NCBI GenBank assembly: GCA_963422375.2
Contig: OY729428.2
Coordinates: forward strand, 3,264,001 to 3,328,000
DNA length: 64,000 bases
Source: Bryobacterales bacterium
Lineage (GTDB): Bacteria; Acidobacteriota; Terriglobia; Bryobacterales; UBA6623
Direction: 5' to 3'
Under the pieces are notes generated by a model. That model was not told the DNA's origin. It saw only the letters and a list, made by a program, of their open reading frames with translations, and searched no databases. Below are positions 1 to 47,383 of this stretch, one piece after another (position 1 is the first letter of the stretch; each line of letters begins with the position of its first letter). The translations under genes were made by a program, and so were the position numbers.

Positions 1-1302
1 GCGACAACCGGATCCGCAACTTGCTCGACGATCTCGACCCGGCCGCGTTCGACCCGCTCTTCCGGCCGTGCCTCGCAACCGTGGCCGCGCAGGGCGCGCT
101 CGAGCCCTTCCAGCGCCTGCCGGCGGCTCCGGACGGCGTCCGGTTCCACCGCTCCGACAGGGTGCATTGCCCGCAGTGCTCGGTGCGGCGCGTCGGCAGC
201 GAGCGCCGGCCGCATCACTTCCACGCCATGGTCGCGGCCACCGCGGTGGCCGACGGCCACGCCACCGTCCTGCCGCTGATGCCCGAGTTCGCGTGCCCGC
301 AGCGGGACGCGGCCGCGACCCGCGCCGACATGAGCGAGGACGAGCGCAAGCGGGACTGCGAGCGCAACGCCGCCAAGCGCTGGCTCGCCGCTCACGGCGC
401 CTGGCTGCAGGCCTGCCGCCCCGTCCTGCCGGGCGACGACCTGTACTGCTGCCAGCCGGTCCGCGAGGCCGCCGCGGCGGCCGGCATGGACTGCATCCGG
501 GTAGGCAAGCCCGGATCCCGCAAGCGCTTGTACGAGGTGCCGGAGAGCCGGCGGGCGAGCGGCGCGAGCGGCACCGTTTTCGCCGGACGGCCGCGGTGCC
601 CCTGCGCAAGGGCCGCGACGCCCTGCGGGGCACTTGGCTCGAGTACGCCGTGGAGCGCGACGGCAAGCGCACCTGCGCCAACAGCTTCTTCACCGGTCTC
701 GCGGTCACCGCGGACAACGCGGAGCGGATCGCGCGCGCCGGCCGGGCGCGCTGGAAGATCGAGAACGGGGGCTTCAACTGCCTGGCGCGGCACGGCCGCA
801 ACTTCAAGCGCAACTTCGGGCACGGCAAGGAAGGGCCGGCCAACGTGCCGGCCGTGCCGAACCTGTTCGCCTTCGCGCTCCACGCCGTGGTGCAGTGCGT
901 CTGCGCGCTGTGGCAGCAGTGCCGGCGCCAGCCGGTCACGCGCCGCGCCCTGTTCCGGGAGCTGCAGGTCGCGCTGCGCTGGTTCCGCTTCCCGGACCGG
1001 CCGACGCTGCTGGCAGCGGTGCGCGACGGACGCGCGCCTCCGGGTTGCCAGGCGGCCGGGGCCTAGACTCCGCGCAGTTTCGTGCCGGCAGCGTCCGGCG
1101 AGCGGCCGACCGTCGCAGCCGGCTACCGCCGGAGTGCGTCCGGCCGCGGGCTCGGCACTCGGCGGGCCGCGCCACGGCCCTGCCCGCCGTCCGACGCTCC
1201 CGCGGGGCGGCCTCCGGAGCGCAACCTCTCGGTCAACTGATTCACCTCATCCTCCGAAACAACCTTCACGCACCCCCTTGACGGCCAAATTTAGAACCGC
1301 TG
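1..1302 (+). mobile_element. ISNCY-like DDE insertion sequence, copy 1 (5' part outside the window; transposase frameshifted)
   Basis: Motifs LPLMPEF, K(Q>R)DCERNAAKRWL, GDDLY and GRARWKIENGGFNCL..NFGHG are split over two frames, with a deletion/frameshift at ~570 relative to copy 2. Right end CCAAATTTAGAACCGCTG ends at 1302 and matches the end of copy 2 at 45653. Confidence 0.85.
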
Positions 1303-1434
1303 CCGCTGATGCCAGCAGCTCTCCCTTGCGCGACTCCAACTCTTGGTTCCGGCGTCTGGTCCCAGCAGCGTCGGCACGGGCCCCGCTGGCTCAAACCGGC
1401 ATCCCCTGATCCACGTGCTCCGTCTCGTCAAGTC

Positions 1435-4191
1435 TCAGAGTTCCGAACATAGGCAGTTTTAGGTTGTCCAAGAGTCTCGCGTCGGAGGGGAGCGGGACGG
1501 TGTGGCCGGGGCGATGGGCTGGCCGCAGGGACTCGCGGACGGCCTTGGGGCGAGCAGCCGCGGAGGCATGGATCGGGGCCTTGGTACCGGCACGTTCGAG
1601 CGAGAGAGCGGTGTCGCCGGTAACTGCGCCGGCCAGCCGGCGGGGACGGGTACCGGGAGCGGTCCGGTCACCTCCGGGGAAGGCCGTCGGCGGCCGCGAC
1701 CGCGGACGCTCCGCGCGGAACCCGTCGCGGTTGGTCGCGGCTGGCTCGGGACCCGGTCGGCGGCCGCGGCCGGGCCGCCGGGGAGGCCCGCGCTTCCAGC
1801 GCTCCGCCCGAGGAGCCGCGCGCCCGGCGCGGGCCGGCCGCGCCAGGCCCCCGCCGGGCGCGTCGGAGCGGTCGGCAGGATTTCGTAGACCAAGCGCAGG
1901 TCCGTGCCGGGGAACACCGCCCGGGCGCGGTTGAGATCCGCGGTCAGCGGCCCGAGCGCCTCGTCGCGGGCCCGCGTGGATTGGTGCAGCAGGCTCACGG
2001 CGAGGGTGCCCGCGGCCGGGTCCGGGCGCAGGCCGGCCGCGCTGCGGAACAGCGCCTGCAGCAGCTCGCGGGCCGGCTCGGCCGGCTCGGGCGCGACCAC
2101 GGCCGCCATGGCCGGCTCGGCCCGGCAGGCCGCCACGCGCACGGTCTCGAGCAGGTGGCGCAGCGGCGCGGGCAGGGCCGTCACGCGGTCCTCCGGGTCC
2201 AGCTCGCCCGCCGGGACGTGCTGCCGGCAGTCGCTCATGCCCCATGCCAGGCCCTTTTCGAGCCTGTCGGCCGCGGCCGGCTGCGCTTGCAGCCGGCGGC
2301 CCCGCTCGCTGTCGGGATGCTCTTCCCGGGCCAGCCGGCGGCGCAGCCGGCCGAGGCGCTCCTCGGTCTTCTCGCGCAAGTTCCCGGCCACGCGCCAGGG
2401 CGGGTTGGTCACCCGCGTGTCCGGAGCGACCTCCGCCAGGGCGTGCTCGGCCAGGGTGTCGAGCCCGAACTCGCTGCGCATGTACTTGAAGAAGTTCTCC
2501 TGCGTCCAGCGCGAGCGCAGCAGGCCCGCCACCTGCTCGGCGGACAGGCTCGGGTGCGTCGTCAGCGCGGACGGCTGGCGCCGGCCCGGGCCCGGCGCGC
2601 CGGCGCGTTGCAGGGGCTGGCGCGGCGGTCGCCGGCGGGCGGCTGGCGCCGGTCGATCCGGAAGCGGATCCCGCGCGCCTTGACGCCGCCGCCCGGGGGC
2701 GAAGGGCCGCTCGGCGATGCGGCCGCCTTGAAGTCGGCCTCGGGCCAGCGTTGCTCCCGCTTGTCCTTGATCCACGTGACCGCGGCCACGCCCTGCCGCC
2801 GCAGCTGGCGGAACAGTTCCGGGCTCCAGCCGTCGCGGTCGAACACCAGCGTCAGCCGCGGCGGCGGCGGCTCGCCCTCGGGCGGGTCCGAGCCCGCCGG
2901 CAGCAGCCCCCGCGCGAGCAGCGACCACGCCAAGTCCGCCAGCGCCCGGACCATGCCGGGGTCGGCCTGGCAGTGCAGGCACGGCAGAGGCGCGCCGCCG
3001 AGAGCCGCGACCCAGTAGCTGACCGAGGCCGGCAGGGCCAGCCTCAGCCGCGGCACGTAGTGCTTGAGCAGGTTGCCGCGGCCGTGGTAGACCTGCACGT
3101 GACCGTCGAGGAACAGCGTGGCCGCGGCCGCGGGATCGTCCGCGGCCCAGTCGCCCGCCAGGCCGGACCGCCAGGCCTGCAAAGCCTCGGGCTGCTCGCC
3201 GAGACGGTGCATCTTGCGCCGCAGGGTGCGCGGGCAAGGACAGCGGTCGAGGCCCGGCAGGGCGCCCCACTCGCCGGGCGCCTCGGCGCCGAGACGCTCG
3301 GGGTTGCGCACCCGGGCCGGCAGCAGGAAGGCCGGCACCAGCAGGGTCGAGTGCAGGCCGTAGAAGCCCTTGCCGACGCTCAGCGCGCCCAGGTGGCCGA
3401 GCAAGCCGGCCTGCAGCAGGGCGGGCAGGGCCGCCAGGATGCCGCCCTCGGCCACCGCCGCGGCCGGCGCGAAGCTCGGAGCACGCTCCTCCAACTGGCC
3501 GAGACTGGCCAAGGCGCGACCCTGCGAGTCGCAGGTGGCCCGGCCCCGGGGCGCGATCGCGGCGCGGCGGCTGCGCTCCTCGCGCCCCGGGGCCGGCGGT
3601 TGCTCCGCGACACTCGCCGCCCCGGCGGGTGCGGGCTCTTCTTCGGTCGCGGGGGCCTTCTCCGTCGCGGGCACCTCGGGGTCGCCGGCGCCTGCTCGCA
3701 GGCGGGCGTCGCGGCGAGCGCCGGGATGCCGGGCAGGCGACCGATCCGCTTGTACTGGCGCAGGGTCTCGTAGCACGCGCCCGGCTGGCGCCTTCCAGCA
3801 GAATCCGCGCAGCTCGGCGCAGGACCTCCCGGTCCTCGATCCCGTGCCGGCGGCGCGGGCGGCGCGGGCGGTCGAAACCGGCCGGGCCGTACTGCTCGAG
3901 GCGCTCCACGTCCCGGCGCACCGTGCGCGCGCAGACCCCGCCAGCCCGCGCCAGTTGCGCCGGCGTGGCCAGCTGCATGTGTGCCAAGTGCGCCAAGTGC
4001 GCCATGCAGCGGCGAGCGGCGCGGCGGTCGTCCGCTGCTTGCATGTCGATCGGCGAGATATCGAGGTAGTAGTACACGCGGTCGCCGTCCCGGAGCATGC
4101 TCGGGCGCTGGTTGACGGGGGTGGCCTCGGCGGGCTGCAGGCCGAGCGATCCGGGCACGCCGCGGGGCGTCTGCGGGAGCTCCGAGCTCAT
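1435..4191 (-). pseudogene. Large putative transposase (HTH N-terminus; LAALPALL..GFYGL..PGEWG.L.GLDR, DGHVQVY, VFDRDGW and RWTQENFFKYMR motifs), multiply frameshifted
   Basis: Motifs are spread over ORFs 1459-4191 and 2562-3776, with frameshifts near 3780 and 2560-2690. ATG at 4191. The right boundary (~1435) is approximate. Confidence 0.75.
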
Positions 4192-4332
4192 GTACTGACC
4201 TCGCCAAAAGTAATTTCACGAGATCGACGATAATACGTAAAACTTTAACTGTACTATAAAACAAACTATTCTCATTCACATCGCATCAATGTCCCGTTGC
4301 GGAATGCCAACCCTAAGTGCTATGATCGTACC

Positions 4333-5372
4333 ATGGACCTCCCTGCATTCCACGACTTTCGCAATGTCCCTCTTCGCGATCGACCAGCCATCCGGAAGTG
4401 GATCGTCATTCGCATCCGTCACGGCGAGTCCATCACCTCGATGGCCGCATCTCTCCGCATCGAATCCCGTACGATCCGCCGTTGATTCGCCAGCTATGTC
4501 AGCTCTGGATTCGCCGGACTTGTCAACAAGACAAGACAGGGAATACCGCGCATCATCTCCCAGAATAAAGTCGAATAGATCCGCGCGACTGTGCGCGACA
4601 AGGATCCGTCTCAGCTCAAGTTTCCGTTCGCCTATTCGACTTTGAAATCCGTGCGTCAGGCCATCCTCGAACGGTTCGGAACCCGGATCTCCGCATCGAC
4701 CGCGAGACGGGTATTGAAGCGCTTGGGATTCACCGTGCAGCGGCCGCAAGTGCGGGCCTTCCAGTGTAACGAGGAAGCAGTAAGAAATTGGAAGAAAAAG
4801 GTTTATTCGGACCTAGCCAAGCGGGCGAAGGAGTGCGGAACGACCATCTTATTCGCGGACGAGGCCGGAATGAACTCGCAGTATCACCGCGGGACGAACA
4901 TGGGCTCTTCGCGGCGAGACTCCGCAGGTGAAGTTCACCGGAGAGCGCTTTCGAATGAACATGATGTCGGCGATCAGCAGCGACGGAGACCTCTTACTGG
5001 AAGCTGCATGAGGGGAGTGGTACTGCGGTTGTATTCCGTGAATTTATCGAGCAGATTCTAGGCGAAATCGGTGGTCAAAAGGTTTGGATTATCGTGGACG
5101 GTCACCGGATTCATACGGCTCGTCCGGTGAAGGAATTTCTAGCGGAAAGGAAGGACGATGTGGAGCTCTATATCCTGCCAGCATACGCGCCAGATCTGAA
5201 TCCTGATGAATCGATTTGGTCGCAGATCAAGCGCCGTGTCGGGAAGGAATTTCTGCGGAAAAAGCAGGATATGAAGAGGCACATGATCGAGGACTTCGAG
5301 GATTTTAAGGCAAATCCTAGGAAGGTAAAAGGGTGCTTTTATCAAGCCGATTGTGCGTACACTCTGTGCTAA
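4333..5372 (+). pseudogene. IS630 transposase pseudogene
   Basis: DDE motifs FADEA, IVDGH and LPAYAPDLNPDE..W. Premature stops TGA 4483-4485 and TAG 4576-4578, plus frameshifts at ~4900 and ~5050. Confidence 0.88.
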
Positions 5373-5391
5373 CCGGTGCTGCAATTACTTT

Positions 5392-6424
5392 CCTGATTAC
5401 CCACAAGACGCAGCCAAGGTTAGGAGGCGGTAAGGCATGGGCGGGGTGCGCACGGAGGCGTGGAGCAGGCGGGGGACCAGCGCCTCCAGATCGTAGCGGC
5501 GGTTGAAGCGGTAGCGGAACTCGGCGAGGTAGCGCGGCAGGTGCTTGCCGTCGAGCGCATGGCAGGTTCCCGCCAGGGACCGCTTGACGTTCGCCAGCAT
5601 CGTGCTGACCCGGACGAAGCGGGAATCCCCGCAGCTCCGCTGCCCGCCTCCGGCGACGGTCGGCACGTGCTCGCAGCCGGCGCCGGCCACGCCCCGCAAG
5701 CAGGCCGGGCCGTCGGCATGCACCTCCGTGCCGGGCTGCAGGTGCCGCCCGGCCCACGCTGCCAGCGTCTTCTTGCGGAAGCCCGCCACGCTGCTCAGGC
5801 GCATCCTTGCCGGCTTGCCGGCGGCGGTGACCTGCACGGCGGCCACGAACGGCGTCTTGCCCGCCGCGCCGCGACCGCGCTTGCCGCCGCTCCGCTCCCC
5901 GCCCCGGTAGGCGTCGTCCACCTGCACGATGCCGCCCAGCGGCAGGCGCTCGTCGCGCTCCTTCATCACTTGCAGGAGCTTGTGCTTCATCTTCCAAGCC
6001 GTGTTCCGGCTGACCCCCGGCTGCCGCGCCAGTTCCAGCGACGCAACGCCGTGCTGGCCCTGCGTCAGCAGGTGGAGCGCCAGCAACCGGACGGTCAGCG
6101 GCAGCTTGGTGGCGGCGAAGATCGTGCCGGCGACGAGGGAGGTCCGGCGGTGGCAGGCATGGCACTGCCGGAGCTTGCGGGAGCGGATGCGGCAGTGCCG
6201 GCGGGAGCCGCACTCCGGGCAGCGGAAGCCGTCCGGCCAGCGGGCCTTGAAGACGGCCTGCTCGCATGGCCCCTCGCTGCCGTAGCGCTGCAGGAACTTG
6301 CCCGGACTGAGCCCCTTCTGGAATTGCACGCGATTGCGTTTCAGCTGCTATCCCCTTTCCTGTCAGAGGTTTCCGACCTCCTCCAGTATAGCATATCCTC
6401 GGCTGACGTTCGTTGGTAATCAGG
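5392..6424 (-). mobile_element. IS1595-family element copy A (1033 bp)
   Basis: Terminal IRs CCTGATTACC...GGTAATCAGG. 8-bp target duplication ATTACTTT at 5384-5391 and 6425-6432. Confidence 0.93.
5397..6329 (-). CDS. IS1595 transposase (open frame, but several conserved residues mutated)
   Basis: Zn ribbon RWPDGFRCPECG..QCHAC, QVDDAY, GKRGRGAAGKTPF and YLAEF.YRFNRR. The true start may be the CTG 15 nt upstream (CTG AAA CGC AAT CGC GTG). Confidence 0.85.
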   Translation of the reverse strand: MQFQKGLSPGKFLQRYGSEGPCEQAVFKARWPDGFRCPECGSRRHCRIRSRKLRQCHACHRRTSLVAGTIFAATKLPLTVRLLALHLLTQGQHGVASLELARQPGVSRNTAWKMKHKLLQVMKERDERLPLGGIVQVDDAYRGGERSGGKRGRGAAGKTPFVAAVQVTAAGKPARMRLSSVAGFRKKTLAAWAGRHLQPGTEVHADGPACLRGVAGAGCEHVPTVAGGGQRSCGDSRFVRVSTMLANVKRSLAGTCHALDGKHLPRYLAEFRYRFNRRYDLEALVPRLLHASVRTPPMPYRLLTLAASCG

Positions 6425-6570
6425 ATTACTTTTGGCAAGGTCAGTACCCAACTATTACACGGCGACGGTTCGCGTCCGACCCGCGTGTTGGTAAGGTAAT
6501 TCTTCCCGGCGCGCTCCCGAACGAGCGGCGCGCCTCCCCCTGACTATCTCTCGACGGACGGACTACGCAC

Positions 6571-7455
6571 GTGAACGAATCGACAGGCAACACCATGGAC
6601 TTCGGCGACAGGACGAAGCTGAACGCGCTGACGTTCTCGGTGCTCGCCCTGTTCCACGCGGGAGCGCTGGCCGCTCCGTTTTTCTTCACGTGGGAGAACC
6701 TGGCGGTGACCGTGGTCATCTACTGGATGGCGGTCAGCTGGGGCATCGGCATGGGCTACCACCGCCTGCACACGCATCGCGGGTACCGCGTGCCGAAATG
6801 GATCGAGTATTTCCTCGCGTTCTGCGGCACGCTGGCGCTGGAGGGCGGCCCGATCTACTGGGTCGCCGCGCATCGCTGCCACCACCAGCACTCCGACACC
6901 GACTTGGATCCGCACACGCCGCGGCATGGCGGGTTCTGGGCGCACGTGGGATGGATCATCTTCGGCAAGACGCTGCACAGCGACACGGCCCTGATGGGAA
7001 GATACGCACCGGATCTCCTCAAGGACCGTTACTACCGGCTGCTGAGCGAGTGGCACTGGGTCCCGCTGACGGTTCTGGGAATCGTGGCGTGGGCGCTGGG
7101 CGGTTTCGGCATGATGCTGTGGGTCGTGCCGCTGCGCGTCGTGGTCAGCCTGCACACGACCTGGCTGGTGAACGCGGCAACGCACATGTGGGGCAGTCGC
7201 AGGTTCCGCACGACGGACGACTCGCGCAACCTGTGGTGGGTGGCCCTGATCACGTTCGGCGAGGGCTGGCACAACAACCATCACGCGCACCCTGTCTCCG
7301 CGCGGCACGGCATGGCGTGGTACGAGTTGGACATCAGCTTCATTCAGATCTGGGTCCTGATGAAGCTCGGCATCGCGAAGGCGGTTTACGCCCCGGGTCT
7401 CGACGATCTGGGCGAGGCCGAGGATCCCGCGCCGGCGCTCAAGGTTCCGGCGTAG
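6571..7455 (+). CDS. Acyl-CoA/acyl-lipid delta-9 fatty acid desaturase
   Basis: His boxes HRLHTH, HRCHH and HNNHH; GEGWHNNHH motif; hydrophobic segments. Confidence 0.92.
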   Translation: MNESTGNTMDFGDRTKLNALTFSVLALFHAGALAAPFFFTWENLAVTVVIYWMAVSWGIGMGYHRLHTHRGYRVPKWIEYFLAFCGTLALEGGPIYWVAAHRCHHQHSDTDLDPHTPRHGGFWAHVGWIIFGKTLHSDTALMGRYAPDLLKDRYYRLLSEWHWVPLTVLGIVAWALGGFGMMLWVVPLRVVVSLHTTWLVNAATHMWGSRRFRTTDDSRNLWWVALITFGEGWHNNHHAHPVSARHGMAWYELDISFIQIWVLMKLGIAKAVYAPGLDDLGEAEDPAPALKVPA

Positions 7456-7692: not shown

Positions 7693-10527
7693 TTGGCGTA
7701 TCGAGACCCATGTAGCTTCGCGGCGGCAGCCGGATTCGCGTTGGCGGCGGCGGCAGCAGCCGCCACGCCGGAGCAGATCGAATTCTTCGAGCGGGACATT
7801 CGCCCGCTGCTCGTCGAACAGTGCTCCGCCTGCCACGGCGAGCACGTGCAAACCGGCGGCCTGGCACTGGACACGCCCGAAGCCTTCTACCGGGGCGGGG
7901 ACTCCGGTCCCGTCTTCTCGGAGCACGATCCAGCGAGCAGCCGGCTGCTGGCGGCGGTGCGCTACGAGGGCGACATCAAGATGCCGCCGACCGGCAAGCT
8001 GCCCGTCGGCGAGATTGCGGCGCTGGCCCGCTGGATCGAAATGGGCGCGCCATGGCCCGGCGCTCGGGCCGTGACCGTTTCGCCGTCCCAGTCCGCGAGT
8101 CCCGAGTGGACTGCCGAGCAGACGGGTCACTGGTCCTTCCAGCCCGTGCGACCCCACCAGCCTCCTGCCGTGATGCAGGAAGAGTGGGTGCGCACGCCGG
8201 TCGACCGCTTCATCCTGGCGAAGCTGGAGCGGCACGGGCTTGCGCCCCCTTCCGCGGCCGACGACCTGACCTTGCTGCGCCGGGCCAAGTACGACCTGCA
8301 CGGCCTGCCTCCGACGGAAGCCGAGATCGAGACCTTCCTGGCGGACACGGCCCCGGGCGCCTACGCGCGGCTGGTCGACCGCCTGCTCGGTTCGCCGCGA
8401 TACGGCGAGAAATGGGGTCGGCACTGGCTCGACATCGCGCGCTACGCCGACTCCACCGGACTCGACGACGACATCAAGCTGCCGCACACTTGGCGCTATC
8501 GCGACTACGTCATCGACGCTTGGAATCGCGACACCCCTTACGACCAATTCATCGTCGAGCAGCTCGCCGGCGACCACCTGCCGCCCGGCGGAGCGGAAGC
8601 GGTGAATCGCAAGGGCATCATCGCCACGGGCTTCCTGGCCGTGGGCACCAAGCCGCTTGTCCAGCAGGACAAGGTCAAGATGAAGTACGACGTGATCGAC
8701 GAGCAGATCGACACGACAGGAAAGGTGTTCATGGCATTGACGGTGGGCTGCGCCCGCTGCCACGACCATAAGTTCGATCCGATCGCCACCAAGGACTACT
8801 ACTCGCTGGCCGGCATCTACGCCAGCGCCAGGAACTTCGCGAGCCTCGATCCGGCGATGACGGTCTCGAAGGTTCACTTCGAGCCGCTCGTCGCCGAGGA
8901 GGTCTACCGGCGCTACAGGGACCATCAGGACAGGATCGGCCACGTCAAGCGGAGGGTCAAGTCGATCATCGACTTGGAGCGCTACCGGTACGTCCTCGAG
9001 CGTCGCAGTTCGCGGCTGGCGGACTACATGGTCGCGGCGCACGAGGTCTACGCCAGCGGCGCGGATGCCGCGATCGTCGGCGATCGCGAGGGCTTGGACT
9101 GCGAGGTGCTGCAGCTGTGGGCCGAGTACTTGGAGCCCGGCGACGACCTCCGACTGCACTTGAAGGAGTGGCACGAGGCCGGCGACCATGAGCGGGCCGC
9201 GACGGCCGCCGAGTACCAGCGCAGGTTCCGCGCCAGAGGAGAGGACTGGATCGCCCAGCTGGCCGCGTGGCGCGTCGAGATCGAGGGCTGGGACGGCGCC
9301 GGCGAGTTCCCCGAGGGGCCGGACTTGGCCCCCGGAGTGGACCGGTTCTTCTCCGAGGTCACGCTCTCGGCTGCCGGCATGGACGAGGGCGCGCGGAGAG
9401 CGGACGGACCCTTCGCGATCCCCAACCGCTTGGTCGACGCGATTCTCCCCCCGGCGGCCGGCGAGCGCGTAGCCGACCTCCGCAAGCAGCAGACCCAGCT
9501 GGAGGAGTCGGCCCTCCCCGAGCCGCCAATGGCTTATGCCGTAGGCCGCGGAGAGAGCGTCGAGCAGCGCGTCTTCGTCCGGGGCAACCACAACCAGCCC
9601 GGAGAGCCGGCTCCCCGGCAGTTCCCCGCGATTCTGGCCGGCGAGGACCAGCAGCCCGTTCCTGACAGCGAGGGCAGGCTCCGGCTGGCGGAATGGATCG
9701 CGAGCGGCGACCATCCGCTCACGGGACGCGTGATCGTGAACCGGCTCTGGCACTGGCACTTCGGCGAGGGGCTGGTGCGCACGCCCAACAATTTCGGCCT
9801 CATGGGCGAGCGGCCCAGCCATCCGGAACTGCTCGACTACATGGCGGGGCGGTTCGTGGCCGACGGCTGGTCGCTGAAGGCGATGCACCGGCTGATCATG
9901 CTCTCCAGCGCCTACCGCAGCCAGAGCACTGTCACGGACGAGGCTTGGGCGGAGGATCCTTCCAACCGTCTTTGGTCCCGTTTCAGCCGGCGCAGGCTGA
10001 CCGTCGAGGAAATGCGCGACGCGCTGCTGGGGGTCGACAGCTCCCTCGACCTAGCGATGGGCGGCGCGCTCACCGACAGCCTAGATTCGTACGGCTTCAA
10101 GAACGCCTACCTGCATCCGGACGACACCCGGCGGCGCACCGTCTACCTGCCGATCTACCGCAACAGGCTGCCGGGCTTGCTGACGCTGTTCGACTTCGCC
10201 GACCCGTCCGCCAGCATCGCCGCCCGATCCAAGACGAGCATCGCGCCGCAGTGGCTGTACTTCATGAACAGCGACTTCGTGCATGTCCGCGCGGCCTCGA
10301 TGGCGAGCCACCTGCTGACCGACAGAGAGTCCCCCGACAGGGAGCGCGTCAAGCGGGCGTACCGCTTGGCGCTGACGCGCGAGGCGCGACCGCGCGAGGT
10401 CGACGAAGCCGTTGCCTACATGGCCCAATACCCCGTTGCCGACGACGCGGACGACGAGCGGCTGGAGCGCTGGCGGAGCTTCTGCCGCCTGCTGCTAGGC
10501 TCGAACGAGTTCAACCACGTCAACTGA
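7693..10527 (+). CDS. PSD1/planctomycete cytochrome c domain protein (DUF1549/DUF1553)
   Basis: CSACH and CARCHDHKFDPI haem motifs; HWSFQP, YGEKWGRHWLD and PSHPELLD motifs; signal-like N-terminus. Start is uncertain (TTG). Confidence 0.9.
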   Translation: MAYRDPCSFAAAAGFALAAAAAAATPEQIEFFERDIRPLLVEQCSACHGEHVQTGGLALDTPEAFYRGGDSGPVFSEHDPASSRLLAAVRYEGDIKMPPTGKLPVGEIAALARWIEMGAPWPGARAVTVSPSQSASPEWTAEQTGHWSFQPVRPHQPPAVMQEEWVRTPVDRFILAKLERHGLAPPSAADDLTLLRRAKYDLHGLPPTEAEIETFLADTAPGAYARLVDRLLGSPRYGEKWGRHWLDIARYADSTGLDDDIKLPHTWRYRDYVIDAWNRDTPYDQFIVEQLAGDHLPPGGAEAVNRKGIIATGFLAVGTKPLVQQDKVKMKYDVIDEQIDTTGKVFMALTVGCARCHDHKFDPIATKDYYSLAGIYASARNFASLDPAMTVSKVHFEPLVAEEVYRRYRDHQDRIGHVKRRVKSIIDLERYRYVLERRSSRLADYMVAAHEVYASGADAAIVGDREGLDCEVLQLWAEYLEPGDDLRLHLKEWHEAGDHERAATAAEYQRRFRARGEDWIAQLAAWRVEIEGWDGAGEFPEGPDLAPGVDRFFSEVTLSAAGMDEGARRADGPFAIPNRLVDAILPPAAGERVADLRKQQTQLEESALPEPPMAYAVGRGESVEQRVFVRGNHNQPGEPAPRQFPAILAGEDQQPVPDSEGRLRLAEWIASGDHPLTGRVIVNRLWHWHFGEGLVRTPNNFGLMGERPSHPELLDYMAGRFVADGWSLKAMHRLIMLSSAYRSQSTVTDEAWAEDPSNRLWSRFSRRRLTVEEMRDALLGVDSSLDLAMGGALTDSLDSYGFKNAYLHPDDTRRRTVYLPIYRNRLPGLLTLFDFADPSASIAARSKTSIAPQWLYFMNSDFVHVRAASMASHLLTDRESPDRERVKRAYRLALTREARPREVDEAVAYMAQYPVADDADDERLERWRSFCRLLLGSNEFNHVN

Positions 10528-10535
10528 GGAGTAGC

Positions 10536-11977
<1,442 letters not shown>

Positions 11978-16071: not shown

Positions 16072-18993
16072 ATGGCGGCAGGCCGCCCGCGCATGCGTCC
16101 GCTGGCCCCTCTATCTCTTGTCGTCGTGCTTCTGTCGGGCGCCGCCGCGGCTCGTGCAGGAAAGGCACCGACCTTCCAACAGGATATCCTGCCCATTTTC
16201 GAGGCCCATTGCTTGGCTTGCCACGGCGCGGAAGCGCCGCAGCAGGACCTCGACCTTCGCAACGTGGGGGCGATGCTCGAGGGCGGCGCGTCGGGGCCAG
16301 CCATCGAGGTCGGATCCTCGGCCGAGAGCCTGCTCGTTGCGCGCGTCGCCGCCGGCACCATGCCTCCCGGGGACGGCGCCTTGGCCGAGGGCGACATCGC
16401 ATTGATCCGGCAATGGATCGATGAGGGCGTCGCGCGCGAGGCGGACGAGCTCGGAATAGCGCTGGTCACCGAGCGCGACGCGCTGCCCATTTTCCAAGCC
16501 CGTTGCGTGGTGTGCCACGGCAACCGCGAGCAACGCGGCGGCTTGGACTTGCGGACGCAGGAGGCCCGGCTGGTCGGCGGCGACTCCGGGCCCGCGCTGG
16601 TGCCCGGCAAGCCCGACGAGAGCCTGATCATCCGCAGGGTCGAGGCTGGGGAGATGCCGCCGCCGGACATGCAGTACGACTACGCGGTGCGGAACCCTAC
16701 CGATGCGGAAGTGGCGACCCTCCGACGCTGGGTGGCGCTCGGCGCGCGGCCCGCGCCGGCCAGGGAACCGTCGCCGAAGGGTGCCTCTGCACGGCAGCAA
16801 GAGGGCAGCGACCACTGGGCATTCCGGCCTCCTGTGCGCCCGGCGGTTCCCGATGTCGCCCACCAGTCGCTCGTGGCGAATCCCATCGACGCCTTCTTGC
16901 TGCGGCGGCTGGAAGGCGAAGGTCTGGCCTACTCCGACGAGGCGGAGCCGCTGGCATTGCTGCGCCGGGCCTACCTCGACCTGACCGGCATGCCTCCCTT
17001 GCCGGAAGTGGTCGAGCGCTACCTCGACGACGATCCCGCGACCCGCTACGAGCGCCTCATCGACCGCTTGCTCGACGCGCCGGAATACGGCGAGCGGTGG
17101 GCCCGGCACTGGCTGGACGTGGCCGGCTACATCGACACGGAGGGCTACGGCGAGTACGCGCCGGAGCGCAAGAACGCCTGGCGCTACCGCGACTACGTCA
17201 TCCGGGCATTCAATCAGGACAAGCCGTTCGACGAATTTCTCACCGAGCAGGTCGCCGGCGACGAGCTGGCCCCGTGGAGGGACCGGGAGATGACGCCCGA
17301 CCTGGTCGAGCGCCTGGCGGCCACCGGCTTCCTGCGCACGGCTCCCGACCCGACCTGGGAGATCGAGTTCGCGTTCCTGGGCGAGCGCATGAACATCATC
17401 GCGGACGAGGTGCATATCCTCGGGTCCGGCGTGCTGGGCCTGACCGTCGGCTGCGCCCGCTGCCACGACCACAAGTACGACCCGATCTCGCAGCGCGACT
17501 ACTACGCCCTGGCGGCGATCCTGCAAGCGGCCTACGACCCCTACGAGTGGCTGCAGCCGAAGGATCGCGAGCTGGACATCGGCGTGGAGAGCGAGAAGCG
17601 GGAGATCGCGAAGGCCAACGCTCCCCTGCAAGAGAAGATCGAGCGCCTCGAGGCCGCGCTGGAGAAGGCCGCGGCTCCCTACCGCAAGCAGCTGCTCGAG
17701 GAACGCCTGGAGCGGCTGCCCAAGACGGTGCGCGCGGACTTGCGTGCGCTGGCCGACACGCCCGAGGAGGAGCGAACCGAGGTACAGCGCTACTTGGCGA
17801 AGCAGTTCAAGGGGACATTGGAGGTCTCCCTGTACGTGCTCGGCGAGAGCTTCGAGCCCTTCAAGCAGGCAGCCGAGGAACTCAAGGAGCAGATCGCGGA
17901 ACTCAAGGGCCAACTCGAGCCCGAGCCGGGGGTTCGCGCGCTCGTGGACTTGGAGGGCGAGCCGCCCATCAGTTACGTGCTGCTGCGCGGGGACGCGATG
18001 AGTCCGGGCTCTCCGGTGGAGCCGGGCGTGCCCGCGGCGGCGAGCGGCGGCATCGCCCCTTACGAGGTGCTTCCTCCCTGGCCCGACGCCGACAGCAGCG
18101 GGCGGCGCCTCGCCCTGGCGCGCTGGCTGACCCAGCCAGGGCATCCGCTGACGGCCCGCGTGATGGTGAACCGCATGTGGATGCGCCACTTCGGGCGGGG
18201 CCTGGTGTCCACGCCGGACAATTTCGGGCGCGAAGGCGAGCCGCCGTCGCATCCGGAACTGCTGGACTGGCTGGCTACCGAATTCGTGCGCAGCGGCTGG
18301 AGCGTCAAGCACATGCAGCGCCTGATGACTACCTCCACCGCGTACCGCCAGGCCTCGCGCAAGGGCGGGTCCGCCCCGGACGCAGATCCCGGCAATATCC
18401 TGCTCGCACGCATGCCGCTGCGGCGGATGGACGCCGAGCAGCTCCACGATTCCATGCTGCGCGCCGGGGGGCGGCTCGACCCGGCCCGGTACGGACCGCC
18501 CGAGCCGCTGGAGGTCAAGGACACCGGGGAGGCGCTCGCCGAAGGCTCGCCAAGCGGGTACCGCCGCAGCATCTACACGCTGCAGCGGCCGCGCACGCCG
18601 ATCACGCTGCTGGAAGCCTTCGACTTCCCGCAGATGACGCCGAATTGCATCGTGCGCGGCCAGTCCAACGTCCCCACCCAGGCGCTGCAGTTGATGAACA
18701 GCGAATGGGCCTGGGAGCTGGCGCGCCACATGGCCGGCCGGGTCATCGACGGCGCGGGCGCCGACGCGCGGGCGCAGCTCGACGCCGCCTACCTGCGCGC
18801 CCTGTCGCGCCTGCCGACGGAAGCCGAGGCGAGCGACTCCCTGGCGGTCTTGGACGAGCTGTCCGGCCACTGGTCGGAGCGGCTGCGCGGCGACGGGCGC
18901 GACGCGCCCGTCGCCCAGACCGCGCGCTGGCTGGCCCTCGCGAACCTGTCCCACACCCTGCTGAACTCCGCCGAGTTCGCGTTCATCGACTGA
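16072..18993 (+). CDS. PSD1/planctomycete cytochrome c protein with two N-terminal cytochrome c domains (DUF1549/DUF1553)
   Basis: CLACH, CVVCH and CARCHDHKYDPI; YGERWARHWLD; PSHPELLDWLA. Alternative start at ATG 16093. Confidence 0.92.
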   Translation: MAAGRPRMRPLAPLSLVVVLLSGAAAARAGKAPTFQQDILPIFEAHCLACHGAEAPQQDLDLRNVGAMLEGGASGPAIEVGSSAESLLVARVAAGTMPPGDGALAEGDIALIRQWIDEGVAREADELGIALVTERDALPIFQARCVVCHGNREQRGGLDLRTQEARLVGGDSGPALVPGKPDESLIIRRVEAGEMPPPDMQYDYAVRNPTDAEVATLRRWVALGARPAPAREPSPKGASARQQEGSDHWAFRPPVRPAVPDVAHQSLVANPIDAFLLRRLEGEGLAYSDEAEPLALLRRAYLDLTGMPPLPEVVERYLDDDPATRYERLIDRLLDAPEYGERWARHWLDVAGYIDTEGYGEYAPERKNAWRYRDYVIRAFNQDKPFDEFLTEQVAGDELAPWRDREMTPDLVERLAATGFLRTAPDPTWEIEFAFLGERMNIIADEVHILGSGVLGLTVGCARCHDHKYDPISQRDYYALAAILQAAYDPYEWLQPKDRELDIGVESEKREIAKANAPLQEKIERLEAALEKAAAPYRKQLLEERLERLPKTVRADLRALADTPEEERTEVQRYLAKQFKGTLEVSLYVLGESFEPFKQAAEELKEQIAELKGQLEPEPGVRALVDLEGEPPISYVLLRGDAMSPGSPVEPGVPAAASGGIAPYEVLPPWPDADSSGRRLALARWLTQPGHPLTARVMVNRMWMRHFGRGLVSTPDNFGREGEPPSHPELLDWLATEFVRSGWSVKHMQRLMTTSTAYRQASRKGGSAPDADPGNILLARMPLRRMDAEQLHDSMLRAGGRLDPARYGPPEPLEVKDTGEALAEGSPSGYRRSIYTLQRPRTPITLLEAFDFPQMTPNCIVRGQSNVPTQALQLMNSEWAWELARHMAGRVIDGAGADARAQLDAAYLRALSRLPTEAEASDSLAVLDELSGHWSERLRGDGRDAPVAQTARWLALANLSHTLLNSAEFAFID

Positions 18994-19002
18994 GGCCGGA
19001 CG

Positions 19003-21804: not shown

Positions 21805-22305
21805 TCGATTGCTCTCCTCTGCTGGGCGGCGCTCCCTTGCAGCTTGCCCGGCCGACCTGCCGGCCCGGCCATCCTGTTTGTCGCGAGATGCTACGGATTT
21901 GCGCCTTGACTTGGACTATCAATGTACCAATCGAGGTGTCGCTGCATCGCTGCCCCGTGCGACGCACTCGCCGGAGATCAGATGCCAGCGGAAAGGGTCG
22001 GCGGGACCCCCGGGGGCTTTCCGATGCGCAACCCGACCGGTTTCCGGCGGCTATATCCGCGGCGGCCCGGCGTGGCCGCAGCTGCCTTGGAGGAGCAGTG
22101 CGCGGCGACCGAAGCTGCGCCCGCGATTGGGGGGGCGGAGGGAGGGCTCGGCTGGGAGATGCGGATCGACGAGCCGCCGAGCGAGTGGATGCGCCGGCGC
22201 ACCCTGTAGGGGCTCGGTCCCAGACTCGCAGTGGTCGTGCTACGGCGCCTCGCGGGCTCGTGGCGCGGTGCCGCTCGCAGTGCTCTCGCCCGCGGCGACG
22301 GCCAG

Positions 22306-24928: not shown

Positions 24929-24966
24929 GTCATTGGTCCTCTCTTTGGAAGCACGGTTGCCGATGC

Positions 24967-25962: not shown

Positions 25963-25972
25963 CGTGACCTCC

Positions 25973-26911: not shown

Positions 26912-26966
26912 GGCGCGGGAAGCCTCTCCGCGGTCGCGCCGCGGCGCGCGAATGGCGCGGTCGCGC

Positions 26967-28541
26967 TCATCGGAACACCACCAGATGAGTGAGGGCGATG
27001 TCGCTGCCGCCGGAGCCGGGGTACGTCTCGCCGCGCACCACGACGCGCAGGGAGTGCTTGCCGTCTTCGAGGTCGTAGTCGTGCCAGACGGACTCCCCGC
27101 CCTTCTGCAGGTCCTCGTCCGGATAGACGTCGACGGTGCGGCTCAGCTCGCCGTCCAGATAGACGTCGGCCTTGCCTCCGGTGGGCAGGTAGAAGCCCGT
27201 GACCATCGCTCCGCGGCCCTCGAAGTCGATGGAGGCCTCGGCTCCCTTGCTGTCGCTGGTCCGGACAGTGTTCGGGTGCCCCCAGCGAGGAGTCGTCTTC
27301 TCTGTCCAGTCGCCCTTGAACGTCCATCGCTCGTCGGTCACCGGGATGCGCTCCGCCGGCGCTCCGTAGTCGTCCCAGATGTCCAGTTCCGCGGGAACCG
27401 GATCCTGGGTGCGCACGGTCAGCCAGTCGCCGTCGACGCTTCCGCCGTGCCGCTCCGCCATGGCAACGGCGCGCTTCACGGTGCTGTCGACGATGGTGCG
27501 GAAGGAATAGTCGGTGTAGCTGAACTTCTCGTCGGCGACCCTGTCGAGACCGCGCTTGTACTCGTCCGGGATGCCCTCGAGGCCCATGGCCACGCCGAGG
27601 ACGCCGAGGGCGCTGGCGGGGTTGCAGTCCGAGTCCTGGCCGCAGCGCGTGGAGATGGTCATGGTCTTGCCGAAATCCCCTTCGCCGTACAGCATGCCCA
27701 GCGCGATATAGGCGCCATTGAGCTTGGCGTCGATGTTGAACGGGTTGGCCGCGCCCTCGGGGCACGGCTCGCGCGCGTTCCACTTGTCCTCGACGGCGTT
27801 CCAGACGCCGATCCAGTCTTCGGGCTGCTCCTCGGACCACGCCAGCACGTCGGATACGAGCTTGGCGTAGGGGCTCTCCGGCGGGAGGCAGGCCAGCCCC
27901 GCTTCGACCAGCGCGCGCGGATCGTCCTCGAAGAACGCCGCCGCGTACATGCAGCTGACGAACATGCCGCCGTAGATGCCGTCGCCGTGGTTCATGACCC
28001 GGCCCGCCCGGTAGCAGAGGTCGTTGGAGGCCTGCGGCAGCCCAGGCGTCATCAGGCCCACGAAGTCGGCCTCGATCTGGAAGTCGATGTCGTTCGCGTG
28101 GGCGTTGTACTTCGGCGTGCCGCTCAGCGTGGCGGGCACGCCGCGCCGCAGCGCCCGCCGTGCCGCCAGGTTGGCGTGCCACAGACGGTACTCGGCGTCC
28201 TTGAACATCGCGCCGAAGTCCTCCGTCGTCGCGTCCAGGCCCTTGTCGTCCAGCACCTGCGCGAAGGTCATGTCCACGTAGAGATCGTCCTGCTTGATCG
28301 CTCCCGCGATCATGTCCGGCTCCCATTGCGGCAGCTCGTCCTCGGGGATGATCCTCTCGCGGTGCCGGAACTCGGTGGGCGCGCCGTAGCTGACGCCGAT
28401 CATCTGGCCGGCCCAGCCGCCGGCGATCTTGTCCTCCAGCTCGGACAAGGAGATGCGCCGCTCCCCGGAATCGGTGCCGCCCGCGCAGCCGGCGAGAGCG
28501 ACGGCTGTGATCGTGACGAGGTTCAAGCGCGCGCTTCTCAT
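26967..28541 (-). CDS. ADP-ribosylglycohydrolase family lipoprotein (paralogue of 23348-24928)
   Basis: Lipobox LAGC; QDDLYVDMT, HANDIDFQIEAD and GQDSDCNP; colinear with the paralogue over its full length. Confidence 0.85.
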   Translation of the reverse strand: MRSARLNLVTITAVALAGCAGGTDSGERRISLSELEDKIAGGWAGQMIGVSYGAPTEFRHRERIIPEDELPQWEPDMIAGAIKQDDLYVDMTFAQVLDDKGLDATTEDFGAMFKDAEYRLWHANLAARRALRRGVPATLSGTPKYNAHANDIDFQIEADFVGLMTPGLPQASNDLCYRAGRVMNHGDGIYGGMFVSCMYAAAFFEDDPRALVEAGLACLPPESPYAKLVSDVLAWSEEQPEDWIGVWNAVEDKWNAREPCPEGAANPFNIDAKLNGAYIALGMLYGEGDFGKTMTISTRCGQDSDCNPASALGVLGVAMGLEGIPDEYKRGLDRVADEKFSYTDYSFRTIVDSTVKRAVAMAERHGGSVDGDWLTVRTQDPVPAELDIWDDYGAPAERIPVTDERWTFKGDWTEKTTPRWGHPNTVRTSDSKGAEASIDFEGRGAMVTGFYLPTGGKADVYLDGELSRTVDVYPDEDLQKGGESVWHDYDLEDGKHSLRVVVRGETYPGSGGSDIALTHLVVFR

Positions 28542-28807: not shown

Positions 28808-29840
28808 CCTGATTACCAACGAACGTCAGCCGAGGATATGCTATACTGAAGGAGGGCGGAAATCTCTGATAGGAAAGGGGATAGCAGCTGAAACGCAATC
28901 GCGTGCAATTCCAGAAGGGACTCAGCCAGGGCAAGTTCCTGCAGCGCTACGGCAGCGAGGGGCCATGCGAGCACGCCGTCTTCAACGCCCGCCGGCCGGA
29001 CGGCTTCCGCTGCCCGGAGTGCGGCTCCCGGCGGCACTGCCGCATCCGCTCCCGCAAGCTCCGGCAGTGCCATGCCTGCCACCGCCGGACCTCCCTCGTC
29101 GCCGGCACGATCTTCGCCGCCACCCAGCTGCCGCTGACCGTCCGGTTCCTGGCGCTCCACCTGCTGACGCAGGGCCGGCACGGCGTTTCGTCGCTGGAAC
29201 TGGCGCGGCAGCCGGGCGTCAGCCGGAATACCGCCTGGAAGGTGAAGCACAAGCTCCTGCAAGTGATGAAGGAGCGCGACGAGCGCGTGCCCCTGCGCGG
29301 CATCGTGCAGGTGGACGACGCTTACCGGGGCGGGGAGCGGACCGGCGGCAAGCGCGGTCGCGGCGCGGCGGGCAAGACGCCGTTCGTGGCCGCCGCGCAG
29401 GTCAGCGCCGCCGGCCAGCCGGCAAGGATGCGCCTGAGCAGCGTGGCGGGCTTCCGCCAGAAGGCGCTGGCAGCGTGGGCCGGGCGGCACTTGCAGCCCG
29501 GCACGGAGGTGCATTCCGACGGCCCGGCCTGCTTGCAGGGCGTGGCCGGCGCCGGCTGCGAGCACGTGCCGACCGTCACCGCAGGCGGGCAGCGGAGCTG
29601 CGCGGATTCCCGCTTCGTCCGGGTCAGCACGATGCTGGGGAACGTCAAGCAGTCCCTGGCGGGAACCTGCCATTCGTTCGACGGCAAGCACCTGCCGCGC
29701 TACCTCGCCGAGTTCCGCTACCGCTTCAACCGCCGCTACGATCTCGAGGCGCTGGTCCCCCGCCTGCTCCACGCCTCCGTGCGCACCCCGCCCATGCCTT
29801 ACCGCCTCCTAGCCTTGGCTGGGTCTTGTGGGTAATCAGG
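28808..29840 (+). mobile_element. IS1595-family element copy B (1033 bp); transposase 28903-29835
   Basis: Same IRs and length as copy A, in inverted orientation. Flanks AAAGTCTT and TCATGGAA show no target duplication. Confidence 0.92.
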
Positions 29841-37091: not shown

Positions 37092-37412
37092 CTCGAGTCC
37101 TTGCGCTGGCCAGGCAGCGTCGCAGCGGGCGCCTGCGGCAGGCACCCGCGCCATAAAGGTAGCAAGACAGGCGGCGGCACGCAACGGAGGGCAGGCGCTG
37201 GCCGGATCCCGCGGCACTTCGCGCCGAGACAGTGGGCCGCAGGCTTGATGCCTGCAGGTGGAGCAGGCGGCGCACCAAGCGAATCGGTCTCCCGAGACTG
37301 GGTCGGCGACGCTGCGATCCAGTCGGCAGGCGCGGCCGCGATAAGCGCGGTCATCGCCCGAGGCCGGAGCAACCGGCGAGGCCGACCGCAGCACCTACAC
37401 AACTCGCGATGC

Positions 37413-38270
37413 TCACATGCCCCACACTTCGATGGAGCCCCCCTGGATCGCCTCCGTGCGTCGGAAGATCTTGTCGGACCACGGTGAGCCCCGCTCGCCG
37501 AAGACTACCAAATGGCCCTCGTCGGCCCCCAGCCGGTCCATGTAGCTGGCCAGCTGGGCCGTGCCGTTCGCAACGGTCCGCTCCAGGGAGTCGCGGTGCA
37601 GCTTGCACTCGATGGCGATGCGCTGGTCGCCCTCCTCTCCGGGCCAGGCGACCAGCAGGTCCAGCCGCCCCCGCCCCAGGGCGTACTCCCGCTGGATGCG
37701 CCCGCCCCCGTTCGCCACCCGCTGCAGGAACGCCTGCAGCAGCAGGTGCGGCACCACCTCCAGATAGCCGGGCAGGTCCGCCAAGGTGTCGGCGCTCTCG
37801 CGGTAGTGCTGCCGGAACGCTTCCAGCAGCTTCGCCATGTCGAGGCCTCCCCCGGCGGTCGCGAAGCGGTATGCGCGCCGCTCCAGCAGCTTCTGATGGC
37901 TCGCCGTGAGCACGCGCGGCACCACCTCCGCGTAGATCGGGTTGGCGATGCGCGGCGGGTCGTCGGCCGCGAGCAGGCCCAGGTCCCTCGCGTATTCCAC
38001 GTCGTCGGAGTCGAATGCACGGTCGTCGCCGGCGAGCATGGGCCGGACGACGCGCGCCACGCGCTCGTCGCGCAGTCTCCTGCCGATCTGGTCGATGTGC
38101 GTCACCCGGCGCAGGATCAGGTCCTCCTGCGCTTCGAAGATGTCGCCCTCCGCGATCGCCCGCGAGCGGTCGCGCCCGGCCGGGCTGCGGAAGCAGGCCG
38201 CGTCGCACAGGGCGTTCACCAGCCACGGCTGCCCCCGGGTCTGGATCCTGCCTCGCCCACCGCCTCAGGG
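37413..38270 (-). pseudogene. C-terminal fragment of an AAA-ATPase / PD-(D/E)XK nuclease-domain protein
   Basis: TRGQPWLVNAL, IANPIYAEVVPR, PHLLLQAFLQRVANGGG and REYALGRGRLDL..IAIECK. The N-terminal P-loop part is missing. Confidence 0.7.
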
Positions 38271-45496: not shown

Positions 45497-45652
45497 CCGG
45501 CTGAGCGGGCTGTCTCCGGGCGGGATCTCGCGACAGCAGCGCCGCACCCTGCCTCGTGCTCACAGGGCTAATCCCGGCTCAGAGATTCATGCGCCGCTGC
45601 CCGGCCCGGCCCAATCACCCCCAACCGGAGCATGCGCTCTTACGTCTGCACC

Positions 45653-47383
45653 CAGCGGTTCTAAATTTGGCCGTCAAGGGGGTGCGTGAACGTTGTTTCG
45701 GAGGATGAGGTGAATCAGTTGACCGAGAGGTTGCGCTCCCGAGGCCGCCCCGCGGGAGCGTCGGACGGCGGGCAGGGCCGTGGTGCGGCCCGCGTCGCGG
45801 GTCCGCCGAGTGCCGAGCCCGCGGCCGGACGCACTCCGGCGGTAGCCGGCTGCGACGGTCGGCCGCCCGCCGGACGCTGCCGGCACGAAACTGCGCGGAG
45901 TCCAGGCCCCGGCCACCCGGCCGCCTGGCAGCCCGGAGGCGCGCGTCCGGCGCGCACCGCCGCCAGCAGCGTCGGCCGGTCCGGGAAGCGGAACCAGCGC
46001 AGCGCGACCTGCAGCTCCCGGAACAGGGCGCGGCGCGTGACCAGCTGGCGCCGGCACTGCTGCCGCAGCGCGCAGACGCACTGCAGCACGGCGTGGAGCG
46101 CGAAGGCGAACAGGTTCGGCACGGCCGGCACGTTGGCCGGCACGTCCTTGCCGTGCCCGAAGTTGCGCTTGCAGTTGCGGCCGTGCCGCGCCAGGCAGTT
46201 GAAGCCCTCGTTCTCGATCTTCCAGCGCGCCCGGCCGGCCCGCGCGATCCGCTCCGCGTTGTCCGCGGTGACCGCGAGACCGGTGAAGAAGCTGCTGGCG
46301 CAGGTGCGCTTGCCGTCGCGCTCCACGGCGTACTCGATCCAAGTGCCCCGCAGGGCGTCGCGGCCCTGGCGCAGGGGCGCCGCGGCCGTCCGGCGAAAAC
46401 GGTGCCGCTCGCACCGCTTGCCCTTCCCGCGCCGCGGCAGCCAGCCGGTCGAGCGCACCGCGCCGCTCGCCCGCCGGCTCTCCGGCACCTCGTGCAAGTG
46501 CTTGCGGGATCCGGGCTTGCATACCCGGATGCAGTCCATGCCGGCCGCCGCGGCGGCCTCGCAGAGCGGCTGGCATCAGTACAGGTCGTCGCCCGGCAGG
46601 ACGGGGCGGCAGGCCTGCAGCCAGGCGCCGCGAGCGGCGAGCCAGCGCTTGGCGGCGTTGCGCTCGCCGTCCCGCTTGCGCTCGTCCTCGCTCATGTCGG
46701 CGCGGGTCGCGGCCGCGTCCTGCTGCGGGCACGCGAACTCGGGCATCAGCGGCAGGACGGGGGCGTGGCCGTCGGCCACCGCGGTGGCCGACGGCCATGG
46801 CGTGGAAGTGATGCGGCCGGCGCTCGCTGCCGACGCGCCGCACCGAGCACTGCGGGCCATGCACCCTGTCGGAGCGGTGGAACCGGACGCCGTCCGGAGC
46901 CGCCGGCAGGCGCTCGTCGAGGCGCTGGAAGGGCTCGAGCGCGCCCTGCGCGGCCACGGTTGCGAGGCACGGCCGGAACAGCGGGTCGCACGCGGCCGGG
47001 TCGCGGTCGTCGAGCAAGTTGCGGATCCGGTTGTCGCAGGGGATGCGGCCCGCGCCGCACAGGGTCCGGCAGTTGCAGCGGGAGCCGTTCCGCTCCATGC
47101 GCCGCTGGAACGCGAGCAACGACTCGCACCGGGTGAAGAAGCAGGCCGGGGCGCACCAGGGCGCAACCGGCGGCGTCGCTGACCTCGTAGCGCTTGTTGC
47201 GACCGTCGCGCCGGTCGGGCCGGCCGGCGGCCGTCTCGCGGAAGGCGCTCAGCAGCACGTCCAGGACATGGGGCATTCACCCTAGCTCACAAATTCCGCA
47301 AGCAAAAGTCGAGTGCCAGACTGCCTTCGACACCTTTCTCAGACACTCTGGAAATCCCAAAATGCCCAAATTGAGAATCGCTG
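45653..47383 (-). mobile_element. ISNCY-like DDE insertion sequence, copy 2 (1731 bp; transposase pseudogene, start ~47276)
   Basis: Imperfect IRs CAGCGATTCTCAATTTGG / CAGCGGTTCTAAATTTGG. Homologous to copy 1. In-frame TGA at 46576 and frameshifts. No target duplication. Confidence 0.88.

Follow-up and report, generated by a model that had tools for sequence, protein, structure and literature searches.

Background

Very-short-patch (VSP) repair biases the correction of markers in lambda heteroduplexes and affects the oligomer content of Escherichia coli. In fungi, repeat-induced point mutation (RIP) brings context-specific C:G to T:A transitions into repeated DNA, and a study of Wolbachia by Cordaux in 2009 is said, going by its title, to deal with gene conversion among non-functional copies of insertion sequences (IS). 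In the present analysis a window of 64,000 nucleotides from a Bryobacterales bacterium, namely G000:C2:3264001-3328000 of a genome assembly (G000) with 6.0 Mb, 67% GC, 96% completeness and three contigs, was studied together with the IS families which have decayed copies in it, IS1595 and a family labelled "ISNCY". The IS families of this genome have undergone a real, lineage-specific and motif-directed decay built from known parts, in which T in the context S[T]GG (S, C or G; the base concerned in brackets) was shifted toward C.

A gonococcal Vsr cuts a CTGG/CCGG substrate and enzymes of this kind can be multispecific (PMC6116569), and Caulobacter VsrA is described as unlinked to a methylase (PMC12907096). 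Work on conversion among dead IS copies is cited in PMC3205602. No report of motif-biased conversion or of T>C decay in bacterial IS families was found in the literature covered, which took in few subscription or older papers and no supplements.

The S[T]GG signature in four IS families

Repeats with at least five copies made up about 8.6% of the genome. Among genomic matches with at least 300 aligned bases, IS1595 had 105 and the "ISNCY"-labelled family 53, each copy being about 2.9% from the family majority; the label of the latter was not confirmed, its intact relative L026 giving just a weak IS4 match below the cut-off in NCBIfam. Two further families were F3 (about 113 copies, 4.2% from the majority; reference L165:2016-3483, that is G000:C1:75115-76583), called IS1595-like from the translation of its relatives only, and F4, which is IS5/IS1182-like with 25 matches. 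Polarisation by the majority consensus was tried and dropped, as numerous CCGG alleles are themselves the majority and the signal was masked. Outgroups were used instead, the ancestral base being called where five or more relative loci were unanimous and 10-95% C being the class tested.

A preliminary description of the window had proposed a directional change of CTGG/CCAG to CCGG which inactivates transposases. In the four outgroup-polarised families, where sites within a family are not fully independent, ancestral T stood at 10-95% C in 22 of 54 CTGG sites and in 11 of 34 GTGG sites, compared with 26 of 568 other T sites (p=3e-13 and p=1e-6, respectively). Sites at 95% C or more came in addition (6 at CTGG, 4 at GTGG and 16 at other T), and since the relatives were about 70% identical some of these alleles may predate the expansion. 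IS1595 alone had C in at least 10% of copies at 10/19 ancestral CTGG against 6/148 other T (p=1.5e-7). F3 and F4, held out until the pattern was set, gave 5/15 for CTGG and 5/13 for GTGG against 10/250 (p=6e-4 and 3e-4). These counts support a T>C process which is directional, motif-specific and tied to IS DNA and which goes beyond an overall AT>GC bias.

The motif is S[T]GG, which is wider than CCGG alone: GTGG>GCGG was hit to much the same extent as CTGG in three of the four families, IS1595 being the exception with 0/9. Most of the remaining changes had been assigned earlier to the half-sites CTG>CCG and TGG>CGG; CTG without GG was not enriched (NTGH 9/199 vs NTH 14/347). Without outgroups, CYGG came top of all N[Y]NN contexts in 37 repeat tiles (52/595 vs 471/12691 overall, p=7e-9), and the Dcm-type C[Y]WGG, [Y]CGG, G[Y]GC and GG[Y]C contexts were weaker. 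No clear rule emerged from the extended context of CTGG. In the opposite direction, C>T at ancestral SCGG reached at least 10% in 0/97 sites compared with 22/913, which is not significant.

Weak-to-strong (W>S) alleles in the IS families were at higher frequency than strong-to-weak (S>W) alleles (p=1.5e-8), and this general part may be ordinary mutation bias. In some counts T>C exceeded C>T in non-IS pseudogenes too (53/1261 vs 26/1432 radical changes), other counts showing no such excess, so the general W>S excess is not claimed to be repeat-specific. Maximum-likelihood values of the bias fell at the grid edge (B 40, interval 10-40), the equilibrium model being violated by the data, and were not used as estimates. 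A second, weaker motif was T[T]>G, strongest in T[T]C, with 20/126 sites at 10-95% against 13/530, and it was also raised among singletons (13/126 vs 20/530). Correction of A:G to C:G of the MutY type could produce T>G, and this motif may have a MutY- or MutT-related origin.

Copies in the window

IS1595 copy A lies on the reverse strand at 5392..6424 (open reading frame (ORF) 5397-6329; NF033547 with 175 bits, cut-off 75) and copy B on the forward strand at 28808..29840 (ORF 28903-29835; NF033547 over the cut-off), with 43 substitutions between them. Both contain a Zn-ribbon and an ISXO2-like DDE domain (PF12760 and PF12762). The "ISNCY"-labelled copy 1 (forward strand, 1..1302) is the decayed 3' part of an element which begins 338 bp upstream of the window, and it differs from the decayed, full-length copy 2 (reverse strand, 45653..47383) by internal deletions of 12, 49, 8 and 13 bp. 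The six 4-mers and the 18 peptide motifs on which the preliminary description was based were all found, 'ALRQQ' having an additional chance match near IS1595.

The paired-copy examples are present and are weak when taken alone, because CTGG/CCAG against CCGG accounts for 2 of the 43 differences between copies A and B. One is CTGG in copy A (6054..6057, forward strand) against CCGG at 29175-29178 in copy B, where C occurs in just 1 of about 99 copies; the other is CCAG, with W36 retained, in copy A (6237..6240, forward strand) against CCGG at 28992-28995, where the derived allele is in 13/92 copies. In the "ISNCY"-labelled pair, copy 2 has CCAG at 46041-46044 and copy 1 has CCGG at 932-935. CCGG at 5610..5613 (reverse strand), which gives W245R in the motif FVRV, is in 95/96 copies, with W in 11 of 12 alignments of relatives. 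Copy A has W86 together with L213P, W245R and further changes, and the intact IS1595 relatives have W or L at all sites checked (L14, W86, L136, L213 and W245). Likewise, the "ISNCY"-type protein of L026 has ALDG, LLGDD, FRWM, LANLLA and FPGW at the sites in question. None of 86 complete IS1595 copies retained all eight scored conserved residues, with a median of five changed, and 75/99 copies had indels. Many 8-14-bp insertions and 5-30-bp deletions were seen in the IS1595 and "ISNCY"-labelled copies, some being common to up to 21 copies.

A large transposase pseudogene in three pieces (reverse strand, 1819..4158; Pfam PF21804 and HTH_29, and tblastn with intact relatives) has 1-3 partial paralogues genome-wide. 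It carries L>P changes at 3344-3312 and 3266-3243, where the relatives read LLLLAFLLLAR and GALLGLDR. These changes are real, and their excess was not significant (5/27 vs 13/162, p=0.15).

The bases were compared with Logan contigs from two public runs, X2 and X5, whose records give no library type; the contigs cover 30/30 bins of window positions 1-6900. Contig pieces matched 1275-1491, 2816-3331, 3302-3782 and 4146-5421 with no differences, both L>P sites included, and IS flanks matched with 0-1 differences. The run contigs also join IS1595 ends to interior positions of other elements, which indicates nested insertions elsewhere.

Distribution of the signature

The signature follows IS DNA. 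Grouped by paralogues of at least 85% identity, CTGG was changed in 7/20 vs 17/217 other sites for 4-9 copies, in 62/191 vs 61/2388 for 10-29 copies and in 844/1916 vs 773/18070 for at least 30 copies, these being copy-level counts which are non-independent. Non-IS pseudogenes had no CTGG excess (9/165 vs 200/3184, p=0.87; 73 broken segments, paralogue-polarised). In the non-IS segments with at least three lesions radical changes fell at 1/40 CTGG against 20/351, and CTGG was changed at 0/63 in 19 broken single-copy alignments to orthologues from two relatives (G005 and G003).

Single-copy genes kept CTGG, with 31/1484 changed against 914/30241. In 3281 single-copy genes, called with an own codon model, synonymous CTGG/CCAG was not depleted, the weak-allele fraction being 0.066 before GG and 0.057 before GA, and 0.071 for CCA+G and 0.061 for CCA+A. 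When synonymous sites were compared among G000, G005 and G003, saturation left just 3 informative CTGG sites. The whole-genome 4-mer observed/expected (O/E) ratio showed no CCGG excess (1.01-1.06).

Among the lineages sampled, the signature is confined to this one. In the IS loci of 26 same-genus genomes, a sample of a few to 31 loci each and not all copies, CTGG>CCGG was seen at 6/1284; the eight most decayed congener IS sets had 1/145 at CTGG against 54/1360, and in ten mosaic IS copies of G021 0/42 CYGG sites were variable.

The decayed IS copies of the congener G012 (L018, L220 and L221) have T>C at 18/195 elsewhere, several of them Y>C, and at 0/20 of CTGG, a different decay signature. 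Nine related copies of G046 (L147-L155) have GTGG>GCGG at 10/54, probably one or two shared sites.

Exchange among copies and allele frequency

In 87 near-complete IS1595 copies, linkage measured as r2 fell from 0.22 at 1-5 bp to 0.06 at 6-15 bp and about 0.02 beyond 30 bp, and all four gametes were present in 96-98% of distant site pairs. The "ISNCY"-labelled family decayed alike and F3 more slowly. Indels were common to copies too, one 12-bp insertion occurring in 14 IS1595 copies, and in three sister clusters of near-identical copies 74 of 83 differences were alleles found elsewhere in the family. As the sequences show, the copies are mosaics whose alleles have been shuffled by ectopic conversion in short tracts. 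Because the copies exchange short tracts, heteroduplexes between them do form, a suggestion of the preliminary description for which this exchange is direct evidence, with individual IS1595 haplotypes resting on the assembly. Tree-based counting of changes was dropped, the copies being too mosaic for it.

Polarised singletons were flat across contexts (CTGG 4/54 and GTGG 1/34 vs 37/568 other T). The unpolarised data agreed, CTGG singletons being 9/87 against 229/2305 (p=0.86) and the 10-50% class 17/87 against 127/2305 (p=9e-6). At S[T]GG allele frequency has thus shifted and new mutation has not, which is fixation rather than new mutation, and the ongoing directional mutagenesis once proposed was not confirmed. 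Of the CTGG sites, 20/54 were untouched and 2/54 were at low frequency. A constant mutation hot spot was rejected: if strong enough for 0.3-0.5 mid-frequency sites in 100-copy families, in simulation it leaves no more than 13% of sites unchanged and puts 22-47% at low frequency.

At 1-5 bp D' was about 0.6 for CYGG pairs and 0.78-0.87 for others (within-tile permutation p=0.024). It was lowered for CYGG-containing pairs up to 15 bp (64 vs 481 pairs), and repeated mutation gives the same pattern. Very short patches would likewise predict such uncoupling at 1-5 bp.

Vsr, methylases and mismatch repair

An intact vsr gene (145-aa ORF; G000:C2:2578398-2578835, reverse strand) was identified with TIGR00632 (154 bits, cut-off 98), and its product could be aligned to PDB 1cw0 with the GRPD, HGCFWH and WEC motifs. 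The adjoining gene presumably encodes a purine-salvage phosphorylase, to judge by its translation, and no methylase is next to vsr in this genome. The gene was present in 24/24 congeners searched, and its synteny is kept in six relatives, in two of which (L047 and L049) C5 methylases of unrelated kinds follow vsr. The locus is a cassette site, where the methylase is missing in G000 and others (L001, L045 and L164).

Elsewhere in the genome 18 PF00145 matches were revealed, four of them with full frames, three being identical. Three intact C5 methylase copies with identical scores are at L002, L003 and L004, one per contig, and the one at L002 adjoins both an uncharacterised ORF of 460 aa and another methylase, which is broken. 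At CCGG, singletons of the C>T type were not raised (31/341 vs 627/5713). With an orphan vsr, a motif that includes GTGG and no rise in such singletons, the CCGG-specific methylase/Vsr pair of the preliminary description was not supported.

For mismatch and base repair, mutS, mutL and recA have open frames and NucS was not found in the genome. A MutY-like gene was just under the cut-off, MutT-like genes were under it, and a family 4 uracil-DNA glycosylase and Nth were over it. The O/E of CCWGG was 0.66 compared with 0.83 in two relatives (400 kb each), and C[C]WGG>T was more frequent in repeats (4.0% vs 1.4% of cells), which together suggest that this Vsr does not protect Dcm-type sites. GTGCAC had an O/E of 0.19 compared with 0.76-0.91 in two relatives (400 kb each) and was absent from the repeat tiles. 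The low O/E of GTGCAC and CCWGG, with the excess of C[C]WGG>T, points to methylation or restriction of these sites over a long time.

Proposed explanation and alternatives

The restriction of the signature to the IS DNA of this lineage, the copy-to-copy conversion and the frequency shift at S[T]GG were observed as described. The explanation preferred for them, with a probability of about one half, is biased gene conversion among dead IS copies by way of Vsr-type T:G to C:G short-patch repair. RecA-type pairing among the tens to hundred copies of a family would give heteroduplex, the shuffling of alleles in short tracts being evident from the sequences. When an STGG copy is opposite an SCGG copy, one of the two possible mismatches would be T:G in 5'-S[T]GG/5'-CC[G]S, from which T would be removed by an enzyme of the very-short-patch type, the orphan Vsr being the most likely one, and C would win more often. 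A T>C change which arose once at the ordinary rate could then sweep the family, and most copies would come to have R for W, P for L and R for Q at conserved codons. Since repeats would be required, single-copy genes and pseudogenes would be spared, and IS remnants that are single-copy now would go back to families which once had more copies. Decay of the transposases would be a by-product.

Several results weigh against biased conversion. The vsr gene alone does not explain the signature, because the congeners have vsr and their IS copies lack the signature, and no CCGG methylase was identified, the homologues of the methylases carrying no specificity names. IS remnants with no paralogue of at least 85% had the excess as well (13/37 vs 36/486, p=6e-6), which weakened an initial view that only families now multi-copy are affected, and with 9/63 CTGG vs 44/510 other for 2-3 copies the dependence on copy number is non-monotonic. 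Recent conversions in the three sister clusters, a small and unrooted sample, were undirected, with 3 T>C vs 4 C>T at STGG, and the clusters overall had W>S 25 vs S>W 33, also unrooted. In a simple Moran simulation pure drive led to about 0.25 mid-frequency sites compared with 0.41 observed, and an old burst fits equally well or better.

Such a burst, a past and repeat-restricted mutagenesis which is the closest analogue of RIP, would have changed STGG to SCGG at about ten times the background in IS DNA, with unbiased conversion shuffling the alleles later; it is possible, if on balance improbable. One route would be nicking by Vsr of the template T of G:T copying errors during synthesis associated with pairing or recombination, and E. 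coli Vsr can stimulate CTAGG>CCAGG mutations (PMC2715241). An IS-only distribution which includes single-copy remnants and the undirected recent conversions fit it, old-burst simulations give 0.40-0.49 mid-frequency sites, and low linkage is also expected from repeated origin. However, the burst must have stopped, as singletons are now flat; it predicts 0.11-0.29 low-frequency sites in 100-copy families, where 2/25 were seen, and near-fixation of damaging alleles such as W245R (95/96) is easier with drive.

A stronger form of the preferred pairing-and-repair scheme, in which RecA and the orphan Vsr act as a bacterial pairing-dependent defence, turning S[T]GG into S[C]GG throughout repeated mobile DNA and crippling whole IS families as a counterpart of RIP, is unlikely.

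Also unlikely is a genome-wide STGG mutational wave that was over before the non-IS pseudogenes of today died, so that no neutral DNA but IS DNA would be of sufficient age to bear its trace. The oldest-looking single-copy IS remnants, with a background T>C of 7.4%, do show the signature, and the T>C excess over C>T in some non-IS pseudogene counts would suit a plain GC bias that is not repeat-specific. Yet the non-IS pseudogenes with at least three lesions have a background T>C of 5.7%, above the 2.6-4.3% per copy of the high-copy families, and their 1/40 at CTGG has a binomial probability of 2e-6 against 33% (a paralogue-based polarisation with small numbers); the undepleted synonymous CTGG/CCAG speaks against the wave as well.

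Imported or ancestral variation, with alleles from another host or from a few defective master copies amplified in trans, is very improbable. It would suit the nearly fixed state of some alleles and the mid-frequency alleles in all change classes, but one motif is common to four unrelated families and many remnants, the signature is in no sampled relative, and a motif-specific source would still be needed. An artefact of sequencing, basecalling or polishing in repeats is very unlikely: two Hi-C runs yielded 0 and 12 reads and the copy-specific bases of IS1595 rest on the assembly, but the contigs of the two other public runs match, both L>P sites included, single-copy genes keep CTGG, and linkage decays over distances far below read length.

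The case bears on whether mismatch-repair bias in recombination raises bacterial GC, and by which enzyme. Here a single assembly holds several "populations" of neutral DNA with 25-110 copies, in which mutation is separable from fixation, and a sharp, enzyme-like 4-base signature comes with a candidate enzyme open to assay. The genome also shows a route for a damaging allele into almost every copy of a transposon family, a point relevant to the end of IS expansions.

Other features of the window and genome

Two pairs of a DUF1549/DUF1553 cytochrome and a DUF1501 protein are at window positions 7693-11465 and 16072-20493; the first DUF1501, which spans just profile positions 1-223 of 390, seems to be broken. 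A cluster at 20533-28541 comprises two ADP-ribosylglycohydrolases along with a nucleoside hydrolase, a permease and a PfkB kinase; within it, 23405-24811 and 27024-28427 are 74% alike. An ORF at 37412-38256, without Pfam or NCBIfam match, has a 98.5% duplicate at G000:C2:3003405-3004249 and several 65-72% paralogues. Very GC-rich tandem repeats were found at G000:C2:2430857-2431294 and C2:1330811-1331271, the second resembling a collagen-type Gly-X-Y repeat.

Comparison with known systems

The IS families share with VSP repair, as in E. coli Dcm/Vsr, N. gonorrhoeae V.NgoAXIII/XIV and Caulobacter VsrA, the T:G to C:G direction and a short motif, and the Vsr of this genome is also unlinked to a methylase, as VsrA is. 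They differ from it in the motif, which is S[T]GG here and C[T]WGG there, and in that the effect is found in IS families only, with no synonymous CCGG excess.

Going by its title, the Wolbachia case (Cordaux 2009) would be alike in that intragenomic conversion keeps dead IS copies close to each other where IS relics abound, whereas here about 100 copies per family act as a recombining population with a motif-specific directional bias. With GC-biased gene conversion the present case shares the higher frequency of W>S than of S>W alleles; it is unlike it in being ectopic, among the repeats of one genome, and in having one dominant 4-base context.

An analogy with RIP was drawn in the preliminary description. 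Transposases are damaged by context-specific transitions in both, the transitions here being absent from non-IS pseudogenes and present both in repeated IS DNA and in IS remnants that are now single-copy, but the change here is T:A to C:G, its density is low (about 3% divergence), there is no raised rate of new mutation, and no dedicated gene was identified in this genome.

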